Virus record (IMG/VR): IMGVR_UViG_3300031627_001041
Span: 781-64,780 of that record
Direction: 5' to 3' (one strand)
Length of the DNA stretch: 64,000 nt
DNA from: a virus
Lineage: Duplodnaviria > Caudoviricetes
The translations under genes were made by a program, and so were the position numbers. The notes beneath the pieces were generated by a model, which had not been told where the DNA came from, did not search any database, and saw only the letters and a list, made by a program, of their open reading frames with translations. Of this stretch, positions 3,425 to 26,188 are shown one piece after another. Position 1 is the first letter of the stretch, and each line of letters begins with the position of its first letter.

Positions 3425-3497
3425 GTTCTTGTAGCTCAGTGGACAGAGCAAGCGGTTTCTACCCGCTAGGTCGGGAGTTCGACTCTCTCCAAGAATA
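3425..3497 (+). tRNA. tRNA-Arg(TCT), CCA not encoded
   Basis: Full cloverleaf: acceptor GTTCTTG/CAAGAAT, D arm GCTC/GAGC, anticodon arm AGCGG-TTTCTAC-CCGCT, T arm GGGAG-TTCGACT-CTCTC, discriminator A. Confidence 0.96.
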
Positions 3498-3504
3498 CTT
3501 ATAA

Positions 3505-3810
3505 GTACCCTACTAAGAAAGCAGTAAACGTGTCGAGGTTATTAGTAAGGCAAAGCAGGACGCGGGGGGCAGAACCCCGCTACCTCCACTTTAATTATAC
3601 GATTCTCAGAAGCTGTTGCGACACATGGGGGTAAAATAGAATCGACTGGTTGTACGAATTAATAATTGCACGTCGTAGTTGGGATCAAGGCTACGTTAAA
3701 ATGATTCCGAACAATAATTGCAACTCGTAATTACACAGTGGCTGCTTAATTGCGGTCGGGGGTTCTGTCAGTTCCTTCTTACCCAATACTGGCATTTTAT
3801 CTACTGAAAG
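3505..3810 (+). ncRNA. ssrA: Circularly permuted (two-piece) tmRNA: acceptor piece ~3505-3589, spacer, coding piece 3627-~3810; tag ATRNYTVAA* at 3720-3749
   Basis: The 3' acceptor strand TACCTCC-A-C (3581-3589) precedes the 5' strand GGGGGTA (3627-3633). They form a 7-bp stem with G3:U70. T arm GCGGGG-GGCAGAA-CCCCGC. P2 pairings 3659-3666/3538-3545 and 3669-3673/3528-3532. pk1 stems 3674-3680/3689-3695 and 3681-3687/3702-3708. Resume context AATAATT-GCA. Outer ends are approximate. Confidence 0.93.
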
Positions 3811-3816
3811 GTAAAA

Positions 3817-4242
3817 ATGGCAGATTCAGCAGACAATAATCATTGGTTTCTTGACAAGGAAGAATACAATAAAGACGACTTCACCGAGGAAGAGGCTGAA
3901 ACCCATTATAGACAATGGGGCTATTATAAAGTGCTTCACGAGGGTGACGGATACACAGTTAAAGAACTCACTATATTGCCCGGTAAATCATTATCAGACC
4001 AAAGACATTTTAAAAGAGCAGAGCATTGGTTTGTTCTCCAGGGTGAGCTTTGGGTTGATCTAGAATACGCCAAAACAAAAAAGTCGATCTACAGAAGTGC
4101 TGGTGCTCACAAAAATACCCTTTTTATTACTAAGAGGACATGGCATAGACCATACAACGCTGGAAATAAAGATACAATCATCATCGAAACTTGGGTCGGT
4201 GACTCAACAGAAGAAGATATTGAGCGGCGAAACATAATATAG
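3817..4242 (+). CDS. Cupin protein (mannose-6-phosphate isomerase type II C-terminal-like)
   Basis: RQWGYYKVL, VKELTILPGKSLSDQRHFKRAEHW and WHRPYN match the ManC/PMI-type cupin pattern. Confidence 0.85.
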   Translation: MADSADNNHWFLDKEEYNKDDFTEEEAETHYRQWGYYKVLHEGDGYTVKELTILPGKSLSDQRHFKRAEHWFVLQGELWVDLEYAKTKKSIYRSAGAHKNTLFITKRTWHRPYNAGNKDTIIIETWVGDSTEEDIERRNII

Positions 4243-4271: not shown

Positions 4272-5522
4272 ATGCTAGACATTAACTTTAATCGGAGAGA
4301 TTTTCTCAGAATCGGAGCGGGCTTTGGAGCTGGCTTTGGAGCGATTCCGTTTTCTGACGCCATAATGGCACAAGAGCAAATACTAATTCCGAATAATAGG
4401 TCTGTTGTATGGGTATGGCTTGGTGGAGGCCCGACACAGTTCGAGACCTTTCACGCCCCAACCCAGTCAGTCCCCGACCCCTACAAGCCTGTGTCTGGTA
4501 TTGTGACACATAAAAATGGCTTGGCGTTCGGAGGCTTGTTTAAAGACCTAATCAAACAGGGTGATAATCTGACTGCGGTCAACTCCTTTTCTCATGGGGA
4601 TTCGTCCCATCGACAGGCAACACACTGGATGATGACGGGACACCGTAACCCTAAAAGGGAGAACACTGCTGATTCAGAATATCCGGGCCACGGAGCTATT
4701 GCGTCTTCAGTATTTGGCTCTAACCACCCTTCAAATGGAATGCCCGCCTATGTAAAACAGGGAAAGATTGAAGGAGAACAACCAACCTTTTTGGGTGGAG
4801 CACACAAGCCCTTTGATCCGACCAATAAAGAAAATTTGACTCCCAGAGTGCCTACCAGCCGATTTTCAGAGAGAAAGGGTTTGCTTGACTCTTTAGACAG
4901 TCGCGGTAGAGTTTTCTCCCCAGACGCTGAATCATTCAGCAAGATAGGCAATACTGCCTATAATGTTATTCTTGGTAATGCGAAAGATGCATTCGATCTT
5001 GACCAAGAGCCGGAAGCGATGCGAGAAATGTATGGAAAGGGCGGCATTGGAGACCAAATGTTGCTTGCTCGTAGGCTGTCGCAGTTTGGAACTAAGTTTG
5101 TCACCGTTCATTATGGCGGCTGGGACATGCATGGCAATATCAAAAATGCATTAGAGGGTAAAGTTCCCCCTCTTGACAAAGCTCTCGCGGCTTTTGTTAA
5201 GGATATTTATCAAAGTGGAATGTCCGAAGATACCCTTCTTGTTGTTACCGGAGAGTTTGGAAGAACTAGGCTGAATGGTAACGGTGGCAGAGATCACTGG
5301 CCTTCCATCACTCCTATGCTATTATCTGGCGGGAAATACGATCACGGTCGAGTCATTGGGAAGGCTGACAAATCCTATGTGCCAACAGAAGATAAGGTTG
5401 GGCCAATTGATATTGCGGCAACACTGTTTGATCACTTTGAAATCGACAAGCAGATTCAAAGAACTGATCAAGGAGGAAGACCTAGATACCTACTCGAAGG
5501 AGAAGGAAAGTTGTTCTTATGA
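4272..5522 (+). CDS. DUF1501 family protein with Tat signal (paralogue 1)
   Basis: N-terminal RRDFLR twin-arginine motif, WLGGGPTQFETF, GWDMH, GEFGRT and GRDHWP. Confidence 0.88.
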   Translation: MLDINFNRRDFLRIGAGFGAGFGAIPFSDAIMAQEQILIPNNRSVVWVWLGGGPTQFETFHAPTQSVPDPYKPVSGIVTHKNGLAFGGLFKDLIKQGDNLTAVNSFSHGDSSHRQATHWMMTGHRNPKRENTADSEYPGHGAIASSVFGSNHPSNGMPAYVKQGKIEGEQPTFLGGAHKPFDPTNKENLTPRVPTSRFSERKGLLDSLDSRGRVFSPDAESFSKIGNTAYNVILGNAKDAFDLDQEPEAMREMYGKGGIGDQMLLARRLSQFGTKFVTVHYGGWDMHGNIKNALEGKVPPLDKALAAFVKDIYQSGMSEDTLLVVTGEFGRTRLNGNGGRDHWPSITPMLLSGGKYDHGRVIGKADKSYVPTEDKVGPIDIAATLFDHFEIDKQIQRTDQGGRPRYLLEGEGKLFL

Positions 5523-6775
5523 AAAGACGAAATTTTTTACACGCTGGTATCTTAGGCGGCTTTGGCCTATCTCTAGCTAGAGCCGATCAAAAATTCTACG
5601 ACAGCAAAGAGGGGCCAGCTAAGAGCGTTATTTTCATATATCTACCCGGAGGAATGGCCCATCAGGAAACCTTAGACCCTAAACCATTCGCCCCCATAGA
5701 ATATCGTGGACCTCTTGGTAGCATAAGTACCAATGTTCCCGGTATCCGTATTGGTGAGCTGTTAAAAAACACAGCAAAGATCACAGACAAAATTTCTATA
5801 ATTCGTAGCATGACACACGGTGAAGCAGCTCATGAACGTGGCACACACAATATGTTTACTGGCTACAAACCTAGTCCAGCCCTTCAATACCCATCTATGG
5901 GTTCAGTGGTTGCACATGAGTTTGGATCTCGCAAGAACCTTCCGCCCTACGTCTGTATACCAAATCCACCTAATGAATTTGCAGGCACTGGATATTTAAG
6001 TAGTTCATATTCTGGTTTTGGCTTAGGTTCCGATCCAGCAAGCGATGACTTTCAAGTTAGGGATTTGAGGGTTCCGGTTCCGGACGAAAGATTCAATAGA
6101 AGAAAAAGGGTTTTGGATATTGTTAACGCAGACTTTAACACAAAGCAAAACGCTGACTCTCTAGATGCTGTTAATTCCTTTTATAAAAAAGCATATAGCC
6201 TAATTGGTAGCGAACAGGCCCGTGATGCGTTCAACATGGAGAAAGAGTCTTCCGCTTTGAGGGATAAATACGGAAGAAACACTGCTGGTGCTCGAATGTT
6301 ACTAGCTCGCCGCTTAGTAGAGGCTGGCACTAGATTCGTAACCCTCACTTATGGTGGTTGGGATATGCACAACTCTATCGCTGGCGGAATGAAAAACCAA
6401 TTACCGGCATTTGATCAGGGGTTTTCTACACTAATTGAAGATTTGCATGATCGCGGATTATTGGACTCTACACTTGTGTGCGTAGTCTCCGAATTCGGAC
6501 GCACTCCAAAAATTAACGCAACCGCTGGGCGAGACCACTGGCCAAAGGTGTTTAGTACAATTATGGCTGGAGCAGGAATCAAACAAGGTATTACATACGG
6601 AACTTCAAACGCCACGGCTAGTGATCCAGAAGAAAACCCTGTTTCCATAGAAGATTGGGCAGCAACTATCTACAATAGGCTGGGAATCACGGCTGACAAG
6701 GAGCTAATGGCTCCCGGAGACCGCCCAATAGAAATCGTTGACGGCGGTAAAATTATACAAAACTTAATCATATAA
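5519..6775 (+). CDS. DUF1501 family protein with Tat signal (paralogue 2)
   Basis: RRNFLH, YLPGGMAHQETLDPKP, LARRLVEAG, GWDMH, EFGRTPKIN and GRDHWP. Confidence 0.92.
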   Translation: MKRRNFLHAGILGGFGLSLARADQKFYDSKEGPAKSVIFIYLPGGMAHQETLDPKPFAPIEYRGPLGSISTNVPGIRIGELLKNTAKITDKISIIRSMTHGEAAHERGTHNMFTGYKPSPALQYPSMGSVVAHEFGSRKNLPPYVCIPNPPNEFAGTGYLSSSYSGFGLGSDPASDDFQVRDLRVPVPDERFNRRKRVLDIVNADFNTKQNADSLDAVNSFYKKAYSLIGSEQARDAFNMEKESSALRDKYGRNTAGARMLLARRLVEAGTRFVTLTYGGWDMHNSIAGGMKNQLPAFDQGFSTLIEDLHDRGLLDSTLVCVVSEFGRTPKINATAGRDHWPKVFSTIMAGAGIKQGITYGTSNATASDPEENPVSIEDWAATIYNRLGITADKELMAPGDRPIEIVDGGKIIQNLII

Positions 6776-6803
6776 GAACAGAAGCTGCCGGAGAAAACCA
6801 AAG

Positions 6804-8021
6804 ATGAAGCATACAAGACGGAACTTTCTGTCGTCACTAGCTGGTGTCGTCTCTTTAACCAAAGCACTGAAGGCTAATGAAGACAAATTAAAAAAGAACG
6901 GCAAATCAGCTATCTTACTGTGGATGGGGGGTGGACCATCCACTATGGACATCTGGGATCTCAAACCAGATTCTAAAACCGGCGGCCCATTTAGACCAAT
7001 CTCCACATCTGGGGATGTTGAAATATGCGAACATATGCCATTGATGGCAAAGCAGATGCACAACATGGCTATCGTTCGCAGCATGAGTACTCGTGAAGCA
7101 GACCACATGCGAGGCAGATACTATATGCATACGGGCTATGTACCTAATCCAAATATAACCCATCCAAGCTACGGTGCAGTTCTCTCAAATCAGCTAGACA
7201 GAGAGCTTATGATACCCCAGTTTATATCTATAAACGGCGGAAGTATGGGGCCTGGATTTTTAGGTGCGGAGTATGCACCATTGGTTTTGAATAGTGACGG
7301 AAATATACGCAATTTAAAGATGAAAATAGACGAGAGGTTTTATCAAAGAGCAGCAATGCTAGACATGATTGAAACCAATTTCATAAACTCTAACAGAGGA
7401 TCAATGCCCAAAGAACACCAGAAGGTGTTGAGAAAGACATTTAACGTCCTAACTAGTACAGATATGGACGCCACAAAAGTAGCTAATGAACCTCAATCAG
7501 TACGTGATAGATATGGAGATAACAGCTTTGGTAAAGGATGTCTGATGGCTAGACGCCTTGTTGAGGTCGGTGTTCCATTTATTGAGGTTGGCTTAGGTGG
7601 GTGGGACAATCATCAAAATATTTTCCCCACATTAAAAGACACGAAACTCCCAGTATTAGATCGAGGAATGAGTGCTCTAATAGAAGACTTGGAGCAGCGA
7701 GGTCTTTTAAAAGATACTGTTATTATATGGATGGGGGAATTTAGCCGAACCCCACGGATTAATGCCAATGCTGGTCGTGATCACTGGGCAGCAAGCTGGA
7801 GTGTCGTGGTAGGAGGAGGAGGTATGAACGGAGGCATTTCTGTCGGGAGTACCAATGAAGACGGAAAGAGAGTAGAAGGCATGGCGTATTCGTCCCAAGA
7901 CATAATGGCTTCTGTTTGTAACGCTCTAAACATTTCCCTTAAAACTACTTTTACAAGTAATAGCGGGAGACCCATGAAAATTGCAAACTCAGGAAGAGTT
8001 ATAAAAGAGCTATTTACTTAA
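6804..8021 (+). CDS. DUF1501 family protein with Tat signal (paralogue 3)
   Basis: TRRNFLS, WMGGGPSTMDIWDLKP, MARRLVEVG, GWDNH, GEFSRTPRIN and GRDHWA. Confidence 0.92.
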   Translation: MKHTRRNFLSSLAGVVSLTKALKANEDKLKKNGKSAILLWMGGGPSTMDIWDLKPDSKTGGPFRPISTSGDVEICEHMPLMAKQMHNMAIVRSMSTREADHMRGRYYMHTGYVPNPNITHPSYGAVLSNQLDRELMIPQFISINGGSMGPGFLGAEYAPLVLNSDGNIRNLKMKIDERFYQRAAMLDMIETNFINSNRGSMPKEHQKVLRKTFNVLTSTDMDATKVANEPQSVRDRYGDNSFGKGCLMARRLVEVGVPFIEVGLGGWDNHQNIFPTLKDTKLPVLDRGMSALIEDLEQRGLLKDTVIIWMGEFSRTPRINANAGRDHWAASWSVVVGGGGMNGGISVGSTNEDGKRVEGMAYSSQDIMASVCNALNISLKTTFTSNSGRPMKIANSGRVIKELFT

Positions 8022-8055: not shown

Positions 8056-8991
8056 ATGAACACACTAATTCGTATCGTAACAGTAGCATTAGTAATGACC
8101 GTTGTCTCAATAACGTATGCAGAAGAAAAGGTTGCCCAACATTTGCAGGATGTTAGTGTGACCATTAAGTCGGCGTCATCAGAGGGGTCGGGAGTGCTTA
8201 TAACTAGAGAGATACAGAAATCTCCAAAAGACACTGAAAAAATTAATGTTAATTTTGTCGTAACGTGTGCTCATGTTGTAAATAACTTGCGGTCCACCAG
8301 AGATATTATTAATAGTAAGGGTCAGAAGCAAACGATTATAGAATTTCGTGATGCTCAAATCGTCAAAGAACTTGTTGAAAACGGTCGTAAGGTTGGCGAG
8401 CTTAAGATGGACGCCAAAGTAATTCTATATTCTGATGCCGAAGATGGCGAAGACCTTGCTGTGTTGATGGTGCGTAAATTAGGGTTCGTTGACACTAACA
8501 CTGAATTTGAGCTGTCCGAGAAACCAACGGCTATCGGGACTAACCTCTTTCATGTGGGGTCATTATTGGGCCAATCTGGAGCAAATTCGATGACCGCTGG
8601 AATAATGTCTCAGGTCGGTAGAGTTTTATCCTTGGGGACTGGTGATGGCGTCGTATTTGACCAAACGACTGTGACAGCATTTCCGGGTTCTTCTGGTGGA
8701 GGAGTGTTTCTTACTAACGGCAAATACGTGGGGATGCTGGTGCGTGGTGCTGGAGAAACCTTTAATTTGATTGTGCCAACTAGACGTATGAAAAAATGGA
8801 CTGCTAGTCGTAATGTAAAGTGGGTACTAGACCCAAAAGCTGTGACTCCCACTTTTGATGAGATTCAAAAGATTAAACCAGAGTCTGAGGGGGATGAGTC
8901 CGAAGCGGTTAAATCAGAAACACCAAAGGCATTTCCCTACTTGATACGTTCGGTCAAATCTGAAAATAAACTTCGGGCGAATGACCAGTGA
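8056..8991 (+). CDS. Secreted trypsin-like (S1/HtrA-type, no PDZ) serine protease
   Basis: Sec-type signal peptide and a catalytic triad: VTCAHVV, DLAVL, PGSSGGGVF. Confidence 0.9.
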   Translation: MNTLIRIVTVALVMTVVSITYAEEKVAQHLQDVSVTIKSASSEGSGVLITREIQKSPKDTEKINVNFVVTCAHVVNNLRSTRDIINSKGQKQTIIEFRDAQIVKELVENGRKVGELKMDAKVILYSDAEDGEDLAVLMVRKLGFVDTNTEFELSEKPTAIGTNLFHVGSLLGQSGANSMTAGIMSQVGRVLSLGTGDGVVFDQTTVTAFPGSSGGGVFLTNGKYVGMLVRGAGETFNLIVPTRRMKKWTASRNVKWVLDPKAVTPTFDEIQKIKPESEGDESEAVKSETPKAFPYLIRSVKSENKLRANDQ

Positions 8992-21281: not shown

Positions 21282-22943
21282 ATGATTTCATTCATTAGCA
21301 CAGACTTTTCTCTCTCTTCATACTTCAAACCGGAGAATATGGAAAACCAGTGCATTCTGTGTGATGATAACTTGAGTGGGGCAGTAGACTACTTTCAGCA
21401 ATGCAAAAAGAAAAGTTTCAAGCCGATCATTAGTTATCGGGGAGACGAAATATACATTGCAAAGAATAAAGCAGACTATACAGAGATGCTTGACGCTTTC
21501 TCTTCTGAGCGTATTCCGAAGGTCACAACAATTGCTGGCGTACCATTTGGAACGCTCGCTAATTTAGTTACCGACAGTTACTACCCCTATACCCCTTCAG
21601 AAGACGCATGGGAACTCGGCAAAAGCTACCTCCGTCAACTAGAAGGGGATGTGATTGTTGGAATTACCCCCTATGATTCTGGTGCTGATGAGGGTCTCAG
21701 AGACCTTCTTAGAGACCTTGCGGAACACCTAGGTCTTCCCACCTGTGTGGTGGATGATGTCCATTACGCGTCAAACCTGGCTACCTCAGACGGTATTGAG
21801 TATGAGCCGCACAAAGATCATCAGATTTTGGTCTGTCACAGGACAAAAAAGACCATTGATGATCACGATCTAATGGATGATCGGTTCAAACGCTTCTTTA
21901 AGAGCAGCGAATACTACCCTCAAGACTGGTCAAAGCTGCCAGAATACAAGGGGACCGAAGAATTAGTTGCTTCTTGTGAAGAATACAGTATTCTAGACGA
22001 GCCACAACTCCCCTTCTTTAAGGACGCAACCAAAACCCTAACTAACCTGGCCCGAGAAGGCTGGAAGGAAAAAGGGCTATCTAAGATAGAAAACTGGAAA
22101 GTTTATCGTGATCGCATCAAAGAAGAGATTCGCGTTATTGATAAGTCTGGTTTTTCGGCCTACTTCTTAGTTCTAGAAGATGTATGTAGATGGATTGATG
22201 AACAAGGCTGGATGAGAGGTCATGGGCGAGGATCAGCGGGAGGCTGTTTAATCTCCTTCCTAATCGGAATTACTAAAGTTGACCCTATTGAGTACGACCT
22301 ACTGTTCGAGAGGTTCTTTTCAGAGGATCGTGCAGAGGCTAGACAGCTACCAGATATTGATATTGACGTGCCTAAGTTTAAGAGGCAGCAAATCTTTGCA
22401 TACCTCCAAGATACCTACGGACATGGTTCGGTAGCTCAAATGGTAACCTTTGCTGCTTTACAGGGACGCTCAGCTCTTACTTCTGCCTTAAAGTTTAATG
22501 ACTCATGTACCTTTTCTGAAATTAAAGCCATTACTGAATTTCTTCCTCAGAAGGATAAAGTCAGTGACCAAATGGATGCTGTTGGTGAGCATAGTCTAAT
22601 TCGTTGGACACTAGAATACCTGCCAGATATATTAGCTGACTTTGCCAGACTTGAAGACGGTAAGATTGTTGGTGACTATGCGAAAGAATTTGAGCAGGCT
22701 ATTAGACTCGAAAAGATTAAAATAGACAGGAGCAAACACGCCTCTGCCATTATCGTCTATAACGGCAATATCAGAGATGTTTGTCCTATGATTAAAGACA
22801 AATCTAGCGATGAGCTTATTACTCACTTCTCTATGGAACATGGTGAAGCTGCCGGGTTAGTCAAACTTGACCTGTTGGGCTTGGCTACTATGGACAAACT
22901 AATGCTAATCAACACGCTCTTAGAGGAGAAAGAAAATGAATAA
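21282..22943 (+). CDS. dnaE: DNA polymerase III alpha (DnaE), N-terminal half (PHP plus palm)
   Basis: PHP-like N-terminus, GRGSAGG, DPIEYDLLFERF, catalytic PDIDID, HAS and KLDLLGL. Confidence 0.92.
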   Translation: MISFISTDFSLSSYFKPENMENQCILCDDNLSGAVDYFQQCKKKSFKPIISYRGDEIYIAKNKADYTEMLDAFSSERIPKVTTIAGVPFGTLANLVTDSYYPYTPSEDAWELGKSYLRQLEGDVIVGITPYDSGADEGLRDLLRDLAEHLGLPTCVVDDVHYASNLATSDGIEYEPHKDHQILVCHRTKKTIDDHDLMDDRFKRFFKSSEYYPQDWSKLPEYKGTEELVASCEEYSILDEPQLPFFKDATKTLTNLAREGWKEKGLSKIENWKVYRDRIKEEIRVIDKSGFSAYFLVLEDVCRWIDEQGWMRGHGRGSAGGCLISFLIGITKVDPIEYDLLFERFFSEDRAEARQLPDIDIDVPKFKRQQIFAYLQDTYGHGSVAQMVTFAALQGRSALTSALKFNDSCTFSEIKAITEFLPQKDKVSDQMDAVGEHSLIRWTLEYLPDILADFARLEDGKIVGDYAKEFEQAIRLEKIKIDRSKHASAIIVYNGNIRDVCPMIKDKSSDELITHFSMEHGEAAGLVKLDLLGLATMDKLMLINTLLEEKENE

Positions 22944-23385
22944 AACAATAGTTATCGCTTCAGGGTACTTTAATCCGGGACATACGGGTCACTTAGACTA
23001 TCTTGAAGAGGCTAAAAAACTAGGAGATTTATTATTTGTTATTGTTAATAACGATGAACAGGTTAAGCTTAAGGGGTCGCAAGCGTTCTTTTGTGAAAGT
23101 GAACGCGGCAGACTAGTGCAGTCTTTAGAGTGTGTTGACCAAGCAATTATCTCAGTAGATTTTGACAAATCGGTCAAGAAAACTATTGGGGTGATTTGGT
23201 CTGTGTTCCAACTAAGCGGAGCAAACATTGTCTTTGCTAACGGCGGAGATCAGAAGTCGGGCGTTCCAGAAGAAGAATTTTGTATGCGGAACGGCATTAA
23301 AATGATTTATGGTGTGGGTGGAGAAAAAACACAGTCTTCCAGTACTTTATTAAATGGCATAAAGGGAAAAAATGGTAGAGCTTGA
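22936..23385 (+). CDS. Cytidylyltransferase-like nucleotidyltransferase (RfaE/TagD-type)
   Basis: SGYFNPGHTGH (HxGH), VIVNND, ANGGDQ and GVGGEKTQSSS. Confidence 0.9.
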   Translation: MNKTIVIASGYFNPGHTGHLDYLEEAKKLGDLLFVIVNNDEQVKLKGSQAFFCESERGRLVQSLECVDQAIISVDFDKSVKKTIGVIWSVFQLSGANIVFANGGDQKSGVPEEEFCMRNGIKMIYGVGGEKTQSSSTLLNGIKGKNGRA

Positions 23386-23776
23386 AAGCAACGGCCCAAT
23401 ACTATTTGTAAAGCCTTTCCCTAAACCAGAAGCACTAGAGATTAGTTCTTGTTTAGATGCACAAGAACAATACGTTTTAAAAAAGATTTATCCAGACTAT
23501 TCGGTAACCTGCGTAAACAAAGAGGGAAAACCAAACAAAAAACAACTTAAGCAGTTTTCTGTAGATGTGCGTAAATATGACCACATTGTGATTATGGGAG
23601 TACAGTGCTCTAAACTGTTAAACCTAAAATACTTTGAATGGGGATCTCAAACCATACACACTAATCATTATGACAAAACCTTTTGGTTTTCTCCCGCGTT
23701 GGGGACAATGATGACATCAAGCAAAAAACTAAAAAAGTTTCGTACTTTTGTGGAGAGTATTGTTGATAACCTTTAA
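23372..23776 (+). CDS. Degenerate uracil-DNA-glycosylase (family 4)-fold protein
   Basis: The order of PILFVKPFP, SVTCVNKEGKP, DHIVIMG..CSKLL and FWFSPALG parallels the UDG family 4 motifs, but the catalytic residues are not conserved. Confidence 0.45.
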   Translation: MVELESNGPILFVKPFPKPEALEISSCLDAQEQYVLKKIYPDYSVTCVNKEGKPNKKQLKQFSVDVRKYDHIVIMGVQCSKLLNLKYFEWGSQTIHTNHYDKTFWFSPALGTMMTSSKKLKKFRTFVESIVDNL

Positions 23777-23966
23777 GCTCTATCTGTGTGCGTACGACGG
23801 TCAAATCAACACAAGAATGCTAGAGGTCCTAGCCCTAGACGAAGAATTAGCACTAAGCGTGGCCCGTTTAGCCATTAATACGTTGTGGCCCGACTCAACA
23901 AGTTCTAGTATATTAATTGACCAAAGCAAAATTTGCCTTGATATGTTAGAACCGAGTATGAATTAA
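23748..23966 (+). CDS. Hypothetical protein
   Basis: 72-aa ORF filling the gap between two genes. Start uncertain. Confidence 0.45.
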   Translation: MWRVLLITFKLYLCAYDGQINTRMLEVLALDEELALSVARLAINTLWPDSTSSSILIDQSKICLDMLEPSMN

Positions 23967-23993
23967 TGAGAAAAACCAAATATAAGGAACAAA

Positions 23994-24680
23994 ATGAAGC
24001 AGAACAACATTGCATTTATTGACTTTGAGACCACCGGACTATCAAAGAAGTGTCAGCTTACTCAAGTAGCTATTGTGGTCATGGACGGAAAAACACTAGA
24101 GTTTAGCAAGAACGATGTATTCAGCTCTAAAATTTGGATTGAGCAAGACGAAGATAGGTGTGCGGAGCTAGACATTGAACCGATTACCCAAAAGGTACTA
24201 GATCTTACCCACAACACACGAGAGGAGCTTTTAAAAGCACCAAAAGAAGATGTCGTTTGGGACAAGATGCTTCAGTTCCTAAAACGCTATTCTAACGCCG
24301 GACAGTGGGGTAGGCCAATTATGGCGGGCTACAACATTACAAACTATGACCGCCCACTCTTTGATATAAGAGCAGAGAAGTATGGTCAGTGGGACGACAA
24401 GCACAGATGCAATAAAGTGTTCCATCCAAGAGAGATTATCGACCTGCAGAAATTTATGTATCTGATTGTAGAGTCATTCCCAACGGTAAACTCAATGAGT
24501 ATGGACAACATGAGACAATTATTTGGGTTTCCAGACACTGGAATGTCTCATGATGCTCGCGTTGACGTTATTGAGGGTGCTTTATTACTTCAAAGACTAA
24601 TGCGTTGGTTACGGAAACTTAGCTCCAAGAAGAAGTTTGAGGGGGTAATGGCCTCCGCTAATGTGAAGGATTTTATGTGA
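23994..24680 (+). CDS. DEDDh 3'-5' exonuclease (DnaQ/epsilon-like)
   Basis: ExoI IDFETTGL, ExoII GYNITNYD and ExoIII HDARVD. Confidence 0.9.
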   Translation: MKQNNIAFIDFETTGLSKKCQLTQVAIVVMDGKTLEFSKNDVFSSKIWIEQDEDRCAELDIEPITQKVLDLTHNTREELLKAPKEDVVWDKMLQFLKRYSNAGQWGRPIMAGYNITNYDRPLFDIRAEKYGQWDDKHRCNKVFHPREIIDLQKFMYLIVESFPTVNSMSMDNMRQLFGFPDTGMSHDARVDVIEGALLLQRLMRWLRKLSSKKKFEGVMASANVKDFM

Positions 24681-26188
24681 TTGATTTTTATGACCTACCA
24701 AAAAATGACTATAAAACCTGGGAACTGTTGGCAACTGGCAAAACTGCCGGCATCTTCCAGCTAGACAATGAAAACCTTGGTGGTAGGTTCTCTCGAAAGA
24801 TTCAACCTAAGAGTATTGACGATATTGCTGCTGTAACCACCATTATTAGGCCGGGTACACTAAACGCAGAAATGGAAGACGGTGAATCAGCCGCCATTCA
24901 TTATGAAAGACGACATAGGGGCGTTGAGAAACCAGAAAGCTTTCATGAGCTACTTGATGTTATCCTGAAAGACACACAGCAGATTATTCTGTATCAGGAA
25001 CAAACGATTAAGATTGCCAAAGAGCTGGCGGGTTTTACTGGTGCTCAAGCCATGAAACTTATGAAGGGGATCGGTAAGAAGAAAGCCGACCTAATCATGG
25101 CACTAGAGAAAGACTTTGTCTCTGGCTGTGTAAAGAACGACATTGTTCAAGAAGAGGCACAGAAGATTTTTGACGTTATCAAGAAGTCGGCACGTTACTC
25201 ATTCAACAAGTCACACGCCGTAGCATACTCTGAGATTAGTTACTGTGACGCCTACGCAAAAGCAAACCACATGATAACCTTCTATGTGGCCTCGCTAAGA
25301 ATGGCACAACACAAAACCAAGTCTAAGATTGTAGTAAAGAAGCTGGTAAAAGAGGCGGCAGCCTTTGGTATTGTTTGTAAACCACCCCGACTTGATAATT
25401 GCTATGTTGATTTTACTGAGAGCCGTGGCGAGATTTACTTTGGCGTTTCTAATATTAAAGGGATAGGAGAAAAAAAGGCTCAGCAAATTGTGGACATAGC
25501 TCCAGGACCAGATACTTGGTATAAGTGTTTGTTTTGTCTACTAGGAGTGGGTAAGGCGGTTGCTGAGAACTCTATTCGGGCAGGAGTCTTTGCTAAGTAC
25601 AAAGTCCCAATTCGGAGACAGATTGATGACCTTAACAATCTATCGTTATTGTCGGTTGGCGAGAAGAAGTACGCAATAGAAACATATAATAATTTTGACA
25701 ATTTTGCCGACTTGCTTCGACATGTTAAGGTCACTAAGGCCACAAATAAACGAAAAGATAAACTGGACTCCATTATTAAACTAATGGATCACCCACCAGA
25801 AGAACTACAAGATAACCTACGGGATACCACCCAAAATGAAGTTGAATTGTTTGGCTGTACTATTAGTTATGATAATATTGATACGGTTCACGCAGCTGGA
25901 AATTGCAGTGTTAACGACTACAACGAGGGGAAAGATTTAAAGTTTTATCAGATAGTGGTTGAGGTGGAACGTGCTAAGACACACGAGATAACCAAAGGTA
26001 CTAGTAAAGGTAAGCTTATGTGTTTCCTGTCTGTATTTGACCATAGCGGTAAAATGGACGTTACTCTCTTTGATATAGCATACGACGAATTCGGTGGATT
26101 ACTATATGAGGGCAGCACAATTATGATTAAGGGCAAACGGGGCCGACGAAAGGGGCTTATTGTAGATGAGGTTCTACAGATAACATGA
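24677..26188 (+). CDS. dnaE: DNA polymerase III alpha (DnaE), C-terminal half (fingers, HhH, OB)
   Basis: TAGIFQL, IIRPG, ILYQEQ, FNKSHAVAY, HhH NIKGIGEK and OB fold MCFLSVFDHSG. Confidence 0.92.
   Translation: MIDFYDLPKNDYKTWELLATGKTAGIFQLDNENLGGRFSRKIQPKSIDDIAAVTTIIRPGTLNAEMEDGESAAIHYERRHRGVEKPESFHELLDVILKDTQQIILYQEQTIKIAKELAGFTGAQAMKLMKGIGKKKADLIMALEKDFVSGCVKNDIVQEEAQKIFDVIKKSARYSFNKSHAVAYSEISYCDAYAKANHMITFYVASLRMAQHKTKSKIVVKKLVKEAAAFGIVCKPPRLDNCYVDFTESRGEIYFGVSNIKGIGEKKAQQIVDIAPGPDTWYKCLFCLLGVGKAVAENSIRAGVFAKYKVPIRRQIDDLNNLSLLSVGEKKYAIETYNNFDNFADLLRHVKVTKATNKRKDKLDSIIKLMDHPPEELQDNLRDTTQNEVELFGCTISYDNIDTVHAAGNCSVNDYNEGKDLKFYQIVVEVERAKTHEITKGTSKGKLMCFLSVFDHSGKMDVTLFDIAYDEFGGLLYEGSTIMIKGKRGRRKGLIVDEVLQIT

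Follow-up and report, generated by a model that had tools for sequence, protein, structure and literature searches.

An alphaproteobacterial two-piece tmRNA, the Caulobacter type, was reportedly described by Keiler, Shapiro and Williams in 2000, and a betaproteobacterial one is said to have been described by Sharkady and Williams in 2004. Among phages, a two-piece tmRNA was found in the Methylophilales phage Melnitz (Buchholz et al. 2022, PMC9004378). The same study identified tmRNA genes in 402 of 18,146 phage genomes, which yielded 133 unique tmRNAs. By ARAGORN, 53 of these were two-piece, and 50 of the 53 came from marine or aquatic samples (PMC9004378). A tmRNA database from 2025 holds 79 phage sequences and introduced RF04321, the Rfam model for permuted tmRNA (PMC11915505). 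Phage-borne two-piece tmRNA is already known, and the gene analyzed here is an additional example. An earlier note on this DNA gave background on permuted ssrA that was incomplete in this respect, as it omitted the two-piece tmRNAs already described from phages. The type of phage that carries the present gene (large, split-DnaE, DUF1501-bearing, uncultured, and marine) is not among the cultured examples.

We analyzed a 64,000-nucleotide stretch (the window), which corresponds to bases 781–64780 of an IMG/VR virus record of 64,780 bases. The tmRNA gene in this window resembles those of Melnitz (MZ577097) and HTVC008M (NC_020484) in being phage-encoded, permuted, marine, equipped with a complete tag, and detected by RF04321. 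As in the window, no phage SmpB has been reported for either phage, and the Melnitz T-loop (GGCAGTA) is similar to the GGCAGAA loop of the window gene. However, Melnitz and HTVC008M are Kyanoviridae with a family-B polymerase, whereas the window belongs to a large phage with a split DnaE. Their tmRNAs share only generic matches of 17–41 nt with the window gene, at 31–48% identity in the aligned parts. The acceptor part of Melnitz, HTVC008M, and phiCbK is 35–54% identical to the canonical-T-loop core of the family described below and 31–46% identical to the window gene. The tools used here recovered the tmRNAs of all three of these phages, together with the published glutamine riboswitch of Melnitz. 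An Rfam scan of the window revealed no glutamine riboswitch, a further difference from Melnitz.

The completeness of the record was estimated by CheckV at 42%. ORFs within the window include the phage hallmarks UvsX-like recombinase, DnaB-type helicase, and PhoH, as well as dUTPase and glycosyltransferases. As UvsX, DnaB, PhoH, and a split DnaE lie on the same record, the tmRNA gene was taken to be phage-borne. The DnaE-type polymerase consists of two ORFs with other genes between them (21282–26188). In a 142-kb relative DnaE is also found as two separate matches (G001 133014–135668), and the split is apparently common to both.

The upstream side of the tmRNA gene adjoins a tRNA-Arg(TCT) gene (3425–3498, plus strand) that was identified by ARAGORN and by the Rfam tRNA model (64.8 bits), and the two are probably co-transcribed. 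Where the 5′ flank of other homologues was scanned, a tRNA was again the direct neighbor, except in L099. A simple promoter scan of the plus strand gave no sigma-70-like promoter near the tmRNA gene. Similarly, a simple scan called no terminator on this strand; the loop of the tmRNA 3′ hairpin is too long for that scan. Directly 3′ of the tmRNA gene and a cupin gene are three tandem DUF1501 genes (4272–8021; Pfam 218–373 bits), and DUF1501 homologues with 75–86% identity occur on many marine (Tara) contigs of 100–170 kb. Judged by these sequences, the DUF1501-bearing phages are a large uncultured marine group.

By covariance model and predicted fold, positions 3505–3800 of the plus strand are a circularly permuted (two-piece) tmRNA gene. 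The covariance-model check proposed in the earlier note was run, and two models scored over their cut-offs: RF04321 with 79.5 bits (cut-off 47) and the alpha_tmRNA model RF01849 with 53.9 bits (cut-off 50). The RF04321 match covered 3528–3749 (+) and the full model (positions 1–213), with an E-value of 1.4e-13 on the window and 3.4e-17 on the whole record. Membership in RF04321 requires that the curated gathering cut-off be reached, and the window gene exceeds it. The consensus resume codon and stop codon of the Rfam alignment coincide with the tag frame of the window gene. Thus, the proposal of a phage-encoded two-piece tmRNA is upheld by the agreement among covariance models, phage hallmark genes, and covariation in homologues.

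All parts of the gene lie on the plus strand. The acceptor piece, which forms the 3′ half of the tRNA-like domain, was placed at 3499–3589 using Rfam alignments and cofolding, with a predicted 5′ end. It includes a 5′ leader or hairpin (about 3505–3524), the 3′ strand of P2 (3525–3561, containing ACGTGT at 3528–3533), and a 6-bp T stem (GCGGGG 3562–3567 with CCCCGC 3575–3580) around the GGCAGAA loop. The acceptor 3′ strand TACCTCC (3581–3587) is followed by the discriminator A3588 and then C3589. The next 37 nt (3590–3626) form an intervening segment that contains no ORF, is not conserved, and is predicted to be excised. The coding piece was placed at 3627–3800 using Rfam and helix tables, with a putative 3′ end set by a hairpin and T-run. 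Its acceptor 5′ strand GGGGGTA (3627–3633) makes 7 of 7 pairs with the 3′ strand, including G3629:U3585, the G3:U70 pair. The 3′ half of the tRNA-like domain (3581–3587) thus precedes the 5′ half (3627–3633), and this order, the spacer of about 37 nt, and the G3:U70 pair had all been read correctly in the earlier note.

Downstream in the coding piece are a D-loop analogue that ends in TCGAC (3642–3646), the 5′ strand of P2 (3646–3673), and pseudoknot pk1 (3674–3709). Both pk1 stems are fully complementary (stem 1, CGTAG 3674–3678 with CTACG 3691–3695; stem 2, TGGGATC 3680–3686 with GATTCCG 3703–3709). The tag frame (3720–3749) runs from the resume codon GCA at 3720 through nine codons, ATRNYTVAA, to the stop codon TAA (3747–3749). 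This stop codon sits in the loop of the P5 hairpin (3739–3758), whose 7 bp join 3739–3745 with 3752–3758. The 3′ region (3758–3800) comprises a G-run (3758–3762), a hairpin (TGTCAGT 3766–3772 with ACTGGCA 3788–3794), and a final TTTTAT. The hairpin loop carries the conserved motif CCTTCT..CCCAA. The hairpin is a putative pk2-like pseudoknot, matching pk2 of a standard tmRNA from a sibling phage, and probably doubles as a transcription terminator. When the two pieces were cofolded without constraints, the acceptor stem and T arm formed, as did 22 P2 pairs between the pieces. None of the 61 proposed pairs is broken in the window copy. The inter-piece P2 helices, fully paired pk1, and intact ATRNYTVAA frame claimed previously were therefore all present.

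A search of metagenomes and IMG/VR revealed two further phages with the subtype of the window gene, L018 (the same phage as L005) and L017. L018 lies on the 142-kb relative, which is 94% complete and has a DnaE that shares 44% identity with that of the window, and L017 is a distinct third member of the GGCAGAA subtype. Their acceptor pieces are 84–85% identical to that of the window gene and their coding pieces 76–83%; their spacers, of 88 or 70 nt, are unrelated to the 37-nt spacer of the window. When longer exact patterns were used against IMG/VR, L005 was the sole match. Anchoring on the DUF1501 gene gave 80 related viral contigs, and 77 whole records were searched with RF04321. A permuted tmRNA scored over the cut-off in nine of the 77, representing six distinct sequences. 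The family comparison comprised nine genes from related marine phage contigs: the window gene and eight distinct homologues.

Across these homologues the spacer varied from 13 to 123 nt and could not be aligned, and both flanking pieces were conserved. An unconserved spacer of variable length is expected for an excised segment. In L101 (identical in L102, L103, and L107), pairing of about 13 bp extends the acceptor helix and closes the 123-nt spacer; this spacer also holds a T-arm-like GAGGTTCAAATCCTC, possibly a tRNA remnant. The spacers of L017 and L018 are also closed by stems, whereas the 37-nt spacer of the window is not.

Helices were maintained throughout the family. The acceptor stem forms 7 of 7 pairs in all nine genes, with pairs 6:67 and 7:66 switching between U-A/A-U and C-G/G-C, and G3:U70 is invariant. 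The T stem (5–6 bp) exists in three covarying variants. Stem 1 of pk1 has three sequence variants and stem 2 has five, all of them fully complementary. Every gene has a P5 hairpin of 7–8 bp with covarying pairs. The stem of the 3′ hairpin (6–8 bp) shows compensatory changes, with a T-run following it in seven of nine genes. The 22 inter-piece P2 pairs of the window compare with 21–25 across the family (z = −1.9 to −4.2 versus a shuffled partner), and P2a contains one compensatory change from G-C to A-U.

The structure was also evaluated on a structure-blind MAFFT alignment, with slid partners and 500 shuffles as controls. The named structure paired 88.3% of cells, compared to 34–44% with slid partners. 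Pairs changed on both sides numbered 17, versus 9.4 ± 1.8 in shuffles, none of the 500 reaching 17. The covariation score was 0.25, versus at most 0.07 when slid. All tag frames in the family have nine codons (ATRNYTVAA, ATRNYALSA, AKPSFALAA, GVENYAMAA, and VEENFALAA), mostly ending in A-A. Helices maintained by compensatory change, together with tags of a constant nine codons, argue that this is a selected, structured RNA gene and neither a chance resemblance nor a decayed fragment.

Two-piece tmRNAs of a second phage type were observed in L002 (3971–4223), L003 (4149–4305, minus strand), and L004 (about 8340–8500), within arrays of at least 20 tRNAs. These share the same 5′ 20–26 nt and the 3′ pseudoknot motif with the window gene, but their T-loop is GGCAGTA, their spacer is short (about 6 nt), and their tag frame differs, apparently reading ANNIVAFTRQTALV. 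No Rfam cut-off was reached by L004, and ARAGORN missed all three.

ARAGORN also reported no tmRNA in the window, where its only call was the tRNA-Arg(TCT) at 3425–3498. As the same program found the tmRNAs of Melnitz, HTVC008M, phiCbK, and most siblings with canonical T-loops, its result on the window was considered a false negative. It missed the entire GGCAGAA subgroup (window, L018, and L017), and L100 in addition to L002–L004. The statement in the earlier note that the two-piece layout is easily missed by standard annotation therefore holds for ARAGORN but not for Rfam, whose RF04321 model detects the gene. Because ARAGORN misses CCA-less genes with GGCAGAA or GGCAGTA loops, censuses based on it, including the published one, undercount two-piece tmRNAs.

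The terminal CCA is not encoded by the gene, which reads A3588-C3589-TTT. The CCA inside TACCTCCA, a sequence quoted in the earlier note, corresponds to C71-C72-A73, the end of the stem and the discriminator. Three of the nine family genes encode CCA; the other six, which are the window gene and five of the eight distinct homologues, do not. The adjacent tRNA-Arg likewise has none (A, then CTT). Its absence from most of the family and from the neighboring tRNA indicates that a missing CCA is the family norm, not a defect. SmpB (PF01668) was absent from the whole 64,780-base record and from the 94%-complete relative, which confirms and extends the earlier observation that no smpB is seen. A CCA-adding enzyme (PF01743) was also absent from both. 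With neither protein encoded by the phage and CCA mostly unencoded, maturation and function must use host machinery, and we infer a need for host RNase P, 3′ trimming, CCA-adding enzyme, AlaRS, SmpB, and EF-Tu.

Among clan models, alpha_tmRNA (RF01849) was the best for the window, but its match (3510–3756) covers only model positions 40–275 of 355. The betaproteobacterial subtype was rejected for the window gene, which scored 37.5 bits with RF01850 against a cut-off of 84. Scores for RF01849 and RF01850, respectively, were 77.3 and 29.6 bits for L018, 62.7 and 75.7 for L099, 60.9 and 54.0 for L101, and 106.7 (over the full model) and 25 for Melnitz. Relatives with canonical T-loops (L099, L100, L104, L108, and L109) align with the beta model over its full length at 61–76 bits, which is under its cut-off. 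Since the alpha match is partial and the closest relatives, with TTCGATT T-loops, fit the beta model better, the alphaproteobacterial affinity of the window gene is weak.

The alpha two-piece tmRNAs (Caulobacter type, phiCbK) have the same gene order and a GGC-type T-loop, as in the window gene. In contrast, the window gene lacks the terminal helices of the alpha type and does not encode CCA. The Caulobacter tag ends in V-A-A, like that of the window. Most relatives have the T-loop TTCGATT, and the alpha-like loop seems to be derived. The GGCAGAA loop and its 6-bp stem recur unchanged in three distinct phages. The acceptor piece keeps a version of AAGCAUGUAG, which is intact in relatives and reads AAACGUGUCG in the window. 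This sequence is the consensus of the standard tmRNA model and is missing from the permuted and alpha consensus.

Maximum-likelihood analysis of 234 columns grouped the window clade with the short-spacer L002/L003 forms (91/98 support), on a backbone that was unresolved. AU tests on the same columns rejected none of three arrangements: all permuted genes as one clade (p = 0.19), the window clade with alpha phages (p = 0.27), and the family with L105/L106 (p = 0.37).

Standard, one-piece tmRNAs were identified in four sibling phages (L105/L121/L122, L106, L110, and L111) with RF00023 scores of 82–154 bits. Their tags are VEENFALAA, AEKNFSLAA, a 19-residue tag, and a 28-residue tag. They are continuous genes with pk3 and pk4, whereas the permuted genes begin at the P2 3′ strand and end after pk2. 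The tag VEENFALAA is common to the standard L105/L121/L122 and the permuted L099/L123/L124, as ARAGORN reads independently. The 3′ parts of these two forms (P2, T-arm, and acceptor) are 87–91% identical, and the 5′ parts through pk2 are 65–72% identical; L105/L122 and L099/L124 have pk1 and pk2 sequence in common. Moreover, the standard gene of L122 and the permuted gene of L124 occupy the same locus, immediately upstream of a gene for dCMP deaminase (PF00383), whose protein is 60% identical between the two over 173 residues. One upstream gene is also common to both. L122 with L124 was the only pair of the two forms with synteny at the protein level. None of the six loci that share the 20-mer coding for VEENFALAA contains a tandem-duplicate intermediate.

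These observations raise the tentative, and on balance doubtful, proposal that the two-piece form of this family arose from (or reverted to) a one-piece tmRNA within the phage/host lineage and not from the classical alpha, beta, or cyanobacterial lineages. The shared tag, the 87–91% identity, the shared locus, retention of AAGCAUGUAG, and the lack of a clean subtype fit all point in this direction. Betaproteobacteria have both tmRNA forms, and the two forms may instead have been acquired independently from related bacteria having both, as hinted by the beta-model affinity of the core group. Were permutation within the lineage correct, L122 and L124 would be a rare place with both sides of a tmRNA circular permutation at the same locus. 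Both forms with the same tag in one phage group make a natural system for studying the origin of circular permutations in structured RNA genes.

The tmRNA gene is accessory, and dispensable, in this phage group. Most related contigs have no tmRNA of any kind, and neither do four of the seven related genomes with the highest completeness (at least 88%). From position 3910 on, contig L006 matches the window at 98% identity; its upstream sequence is unrelated and contains two tRNA-Gly genes and no tmRNA. The junction (window 3817–3910 versus L006 1–1200) falls within the 5′ end of the cupin gene (mannose-6-phosphate-isomerase-like), which is intact in L006 with a different N-terminus. This may be a mosaic junction at the cupin gene, with chimeric assembly of L006 as the alternative. 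When the locus and L099 were compared by blastn to 50,697 GenBank phage records, only tRNA and generic T-arm matches were obtained.

Taken together, the sequence evidence makes it very likely that the phage carries a functional ssrA gene of the circularly permuted (two-piece) kind. The tmRNA would be transcribed together with the upstream tRNA-Arg, and 3′ processing of the latter would free the 5′ end of the acceptor piece. Host RNase P would cut 5′ of G3627, and host tRNA 3′-processing enzymes would trim after A3588 (or C3589), leaving the host CCA-adding enzyme to complete the end. The 37-nt spacer would be discarded and the two RNAs would remain base-paired, held by the 7-bp acceptor stem and about 22 P2 pairs. 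Host AlaRS would alanylate this RNA via G3:U70. With host SmpB, whose compatibility with the phage two-piece RNA is assumed, and EF-Tu, it would enter stalled ribosomes, where translation would resume at GCA 3720. The nascent chain would gain (A)ATRNYTVAA, which resembles known protease-targeting tags in its C-terminal V-A-A. We conjecture that the phage probably benefits by keeping ribosomes free while host mRNA is degraded during infection. The suggestion in the earlier note that the RNA replaces host tmRNA cut by anti-phage RNases is speculation. Several features count against a functional gene: its dispensability, the absence of a phage SmpB, the unencoded CCA, the absence of a nearby sigma-70-like promoter, and the penultimate tag residues, which are T-V in the window versus A-L or A-M in relatives.

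Some of these features could also fit an RNA that modulates or decoys host trans-translation, by competing for SmpB, AlaRS, or EF-Tu or by re-tagging host proteins. Such an RNA would draw on the host pool, as a phage without its own SmpB must, and the tags of close relatives do differ (ATRNYTVAA, ATRNYALSA, and AKPSFALAA). Selective tagging was also proposed for phage tmRNA (PMC9004378). A tmRNA relative without a CDS, encoded by mycobacteriophage DS6A, reportedly inhibits the endogenous tmRNA of the host (cited in PMC11915505) and, like the window gene, must use host partners. However, the DS6A RNA has no tag frame, whereas the window gene has a conserved tag module. Indeed, pk1, resume codon, nine-codon frame, and P5 stop are kept by covariation, none of which a pure decoy needs, and the tag keeps its usual C-terminal A-A. 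We consider a modulator or decoy improbable.

It is more improbable again that the gene is a passenger of a tRNA island drifting to loss, with the absent CCA, odd T-loop, and T-V of the tag as early decay. The gene is missing from the 98%-identical contig and most relatives, ARAGORN rejects it, CCA is unencoded, and GGCAGAA departs from the TTCGATT of most relatives. Nevertheless, 61 of 61 proposed pairs are intact, and absence of CCA is common to six of nine family genes and to the tRNA-Arg. The recurrence of GGCAGAA with its 6-bp stem in three distinct phages, and of the similar GGCAGTA in Melnitz and L002–L004, indicates a maintained variant. Temperate phages reportedly often use ssrA as an integration site and contain its 3′ end (PMC4383910; discussed in PMC9004378), such that the locus could instead be a fragment of a host tmRNA gene, left as an attachment site or by imprecise excision. 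Here, though, neither half is missing and the tag module is complete. The 5′ 20-mer of the window gene was in no tmRNA among 185,579 bacterial and archaeal species genomes, its one match being a chance occurrence inside an ORF. The gene has a tRNA context, is conserved in large phage contigs of lytic type, and had no integrase among the ORFs of the window covered by a non-exhaustive scan. A host fragment is scarcely credible, and a functional two-piece ssrA gene is the reading we favor.

As for the host, the Atlas clusters nearest to the DUF1501 proteins of the window are viral or planctomycete, which offers Planctomycetota as a lead only. In this phylum, 1,914 standard tmRNAs versus one permuted tmRNA were recorded among 2,512 genomes (PMC11915505, Table S2). 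A planctomycete host would thus be expected to have a tmRNA of the standard form, and the phage two-piece tmRNA would then be working in cells whose own tmRNA is one-piece.

A further noncoding RNA was observed beside one of the reference genes. In phiCbK (L117 506–992), GOLLD RNA was detected with 165 bits about 0.5 kb from the permuted tmRNA, among tRNAs; it is an already known feature of this phage.
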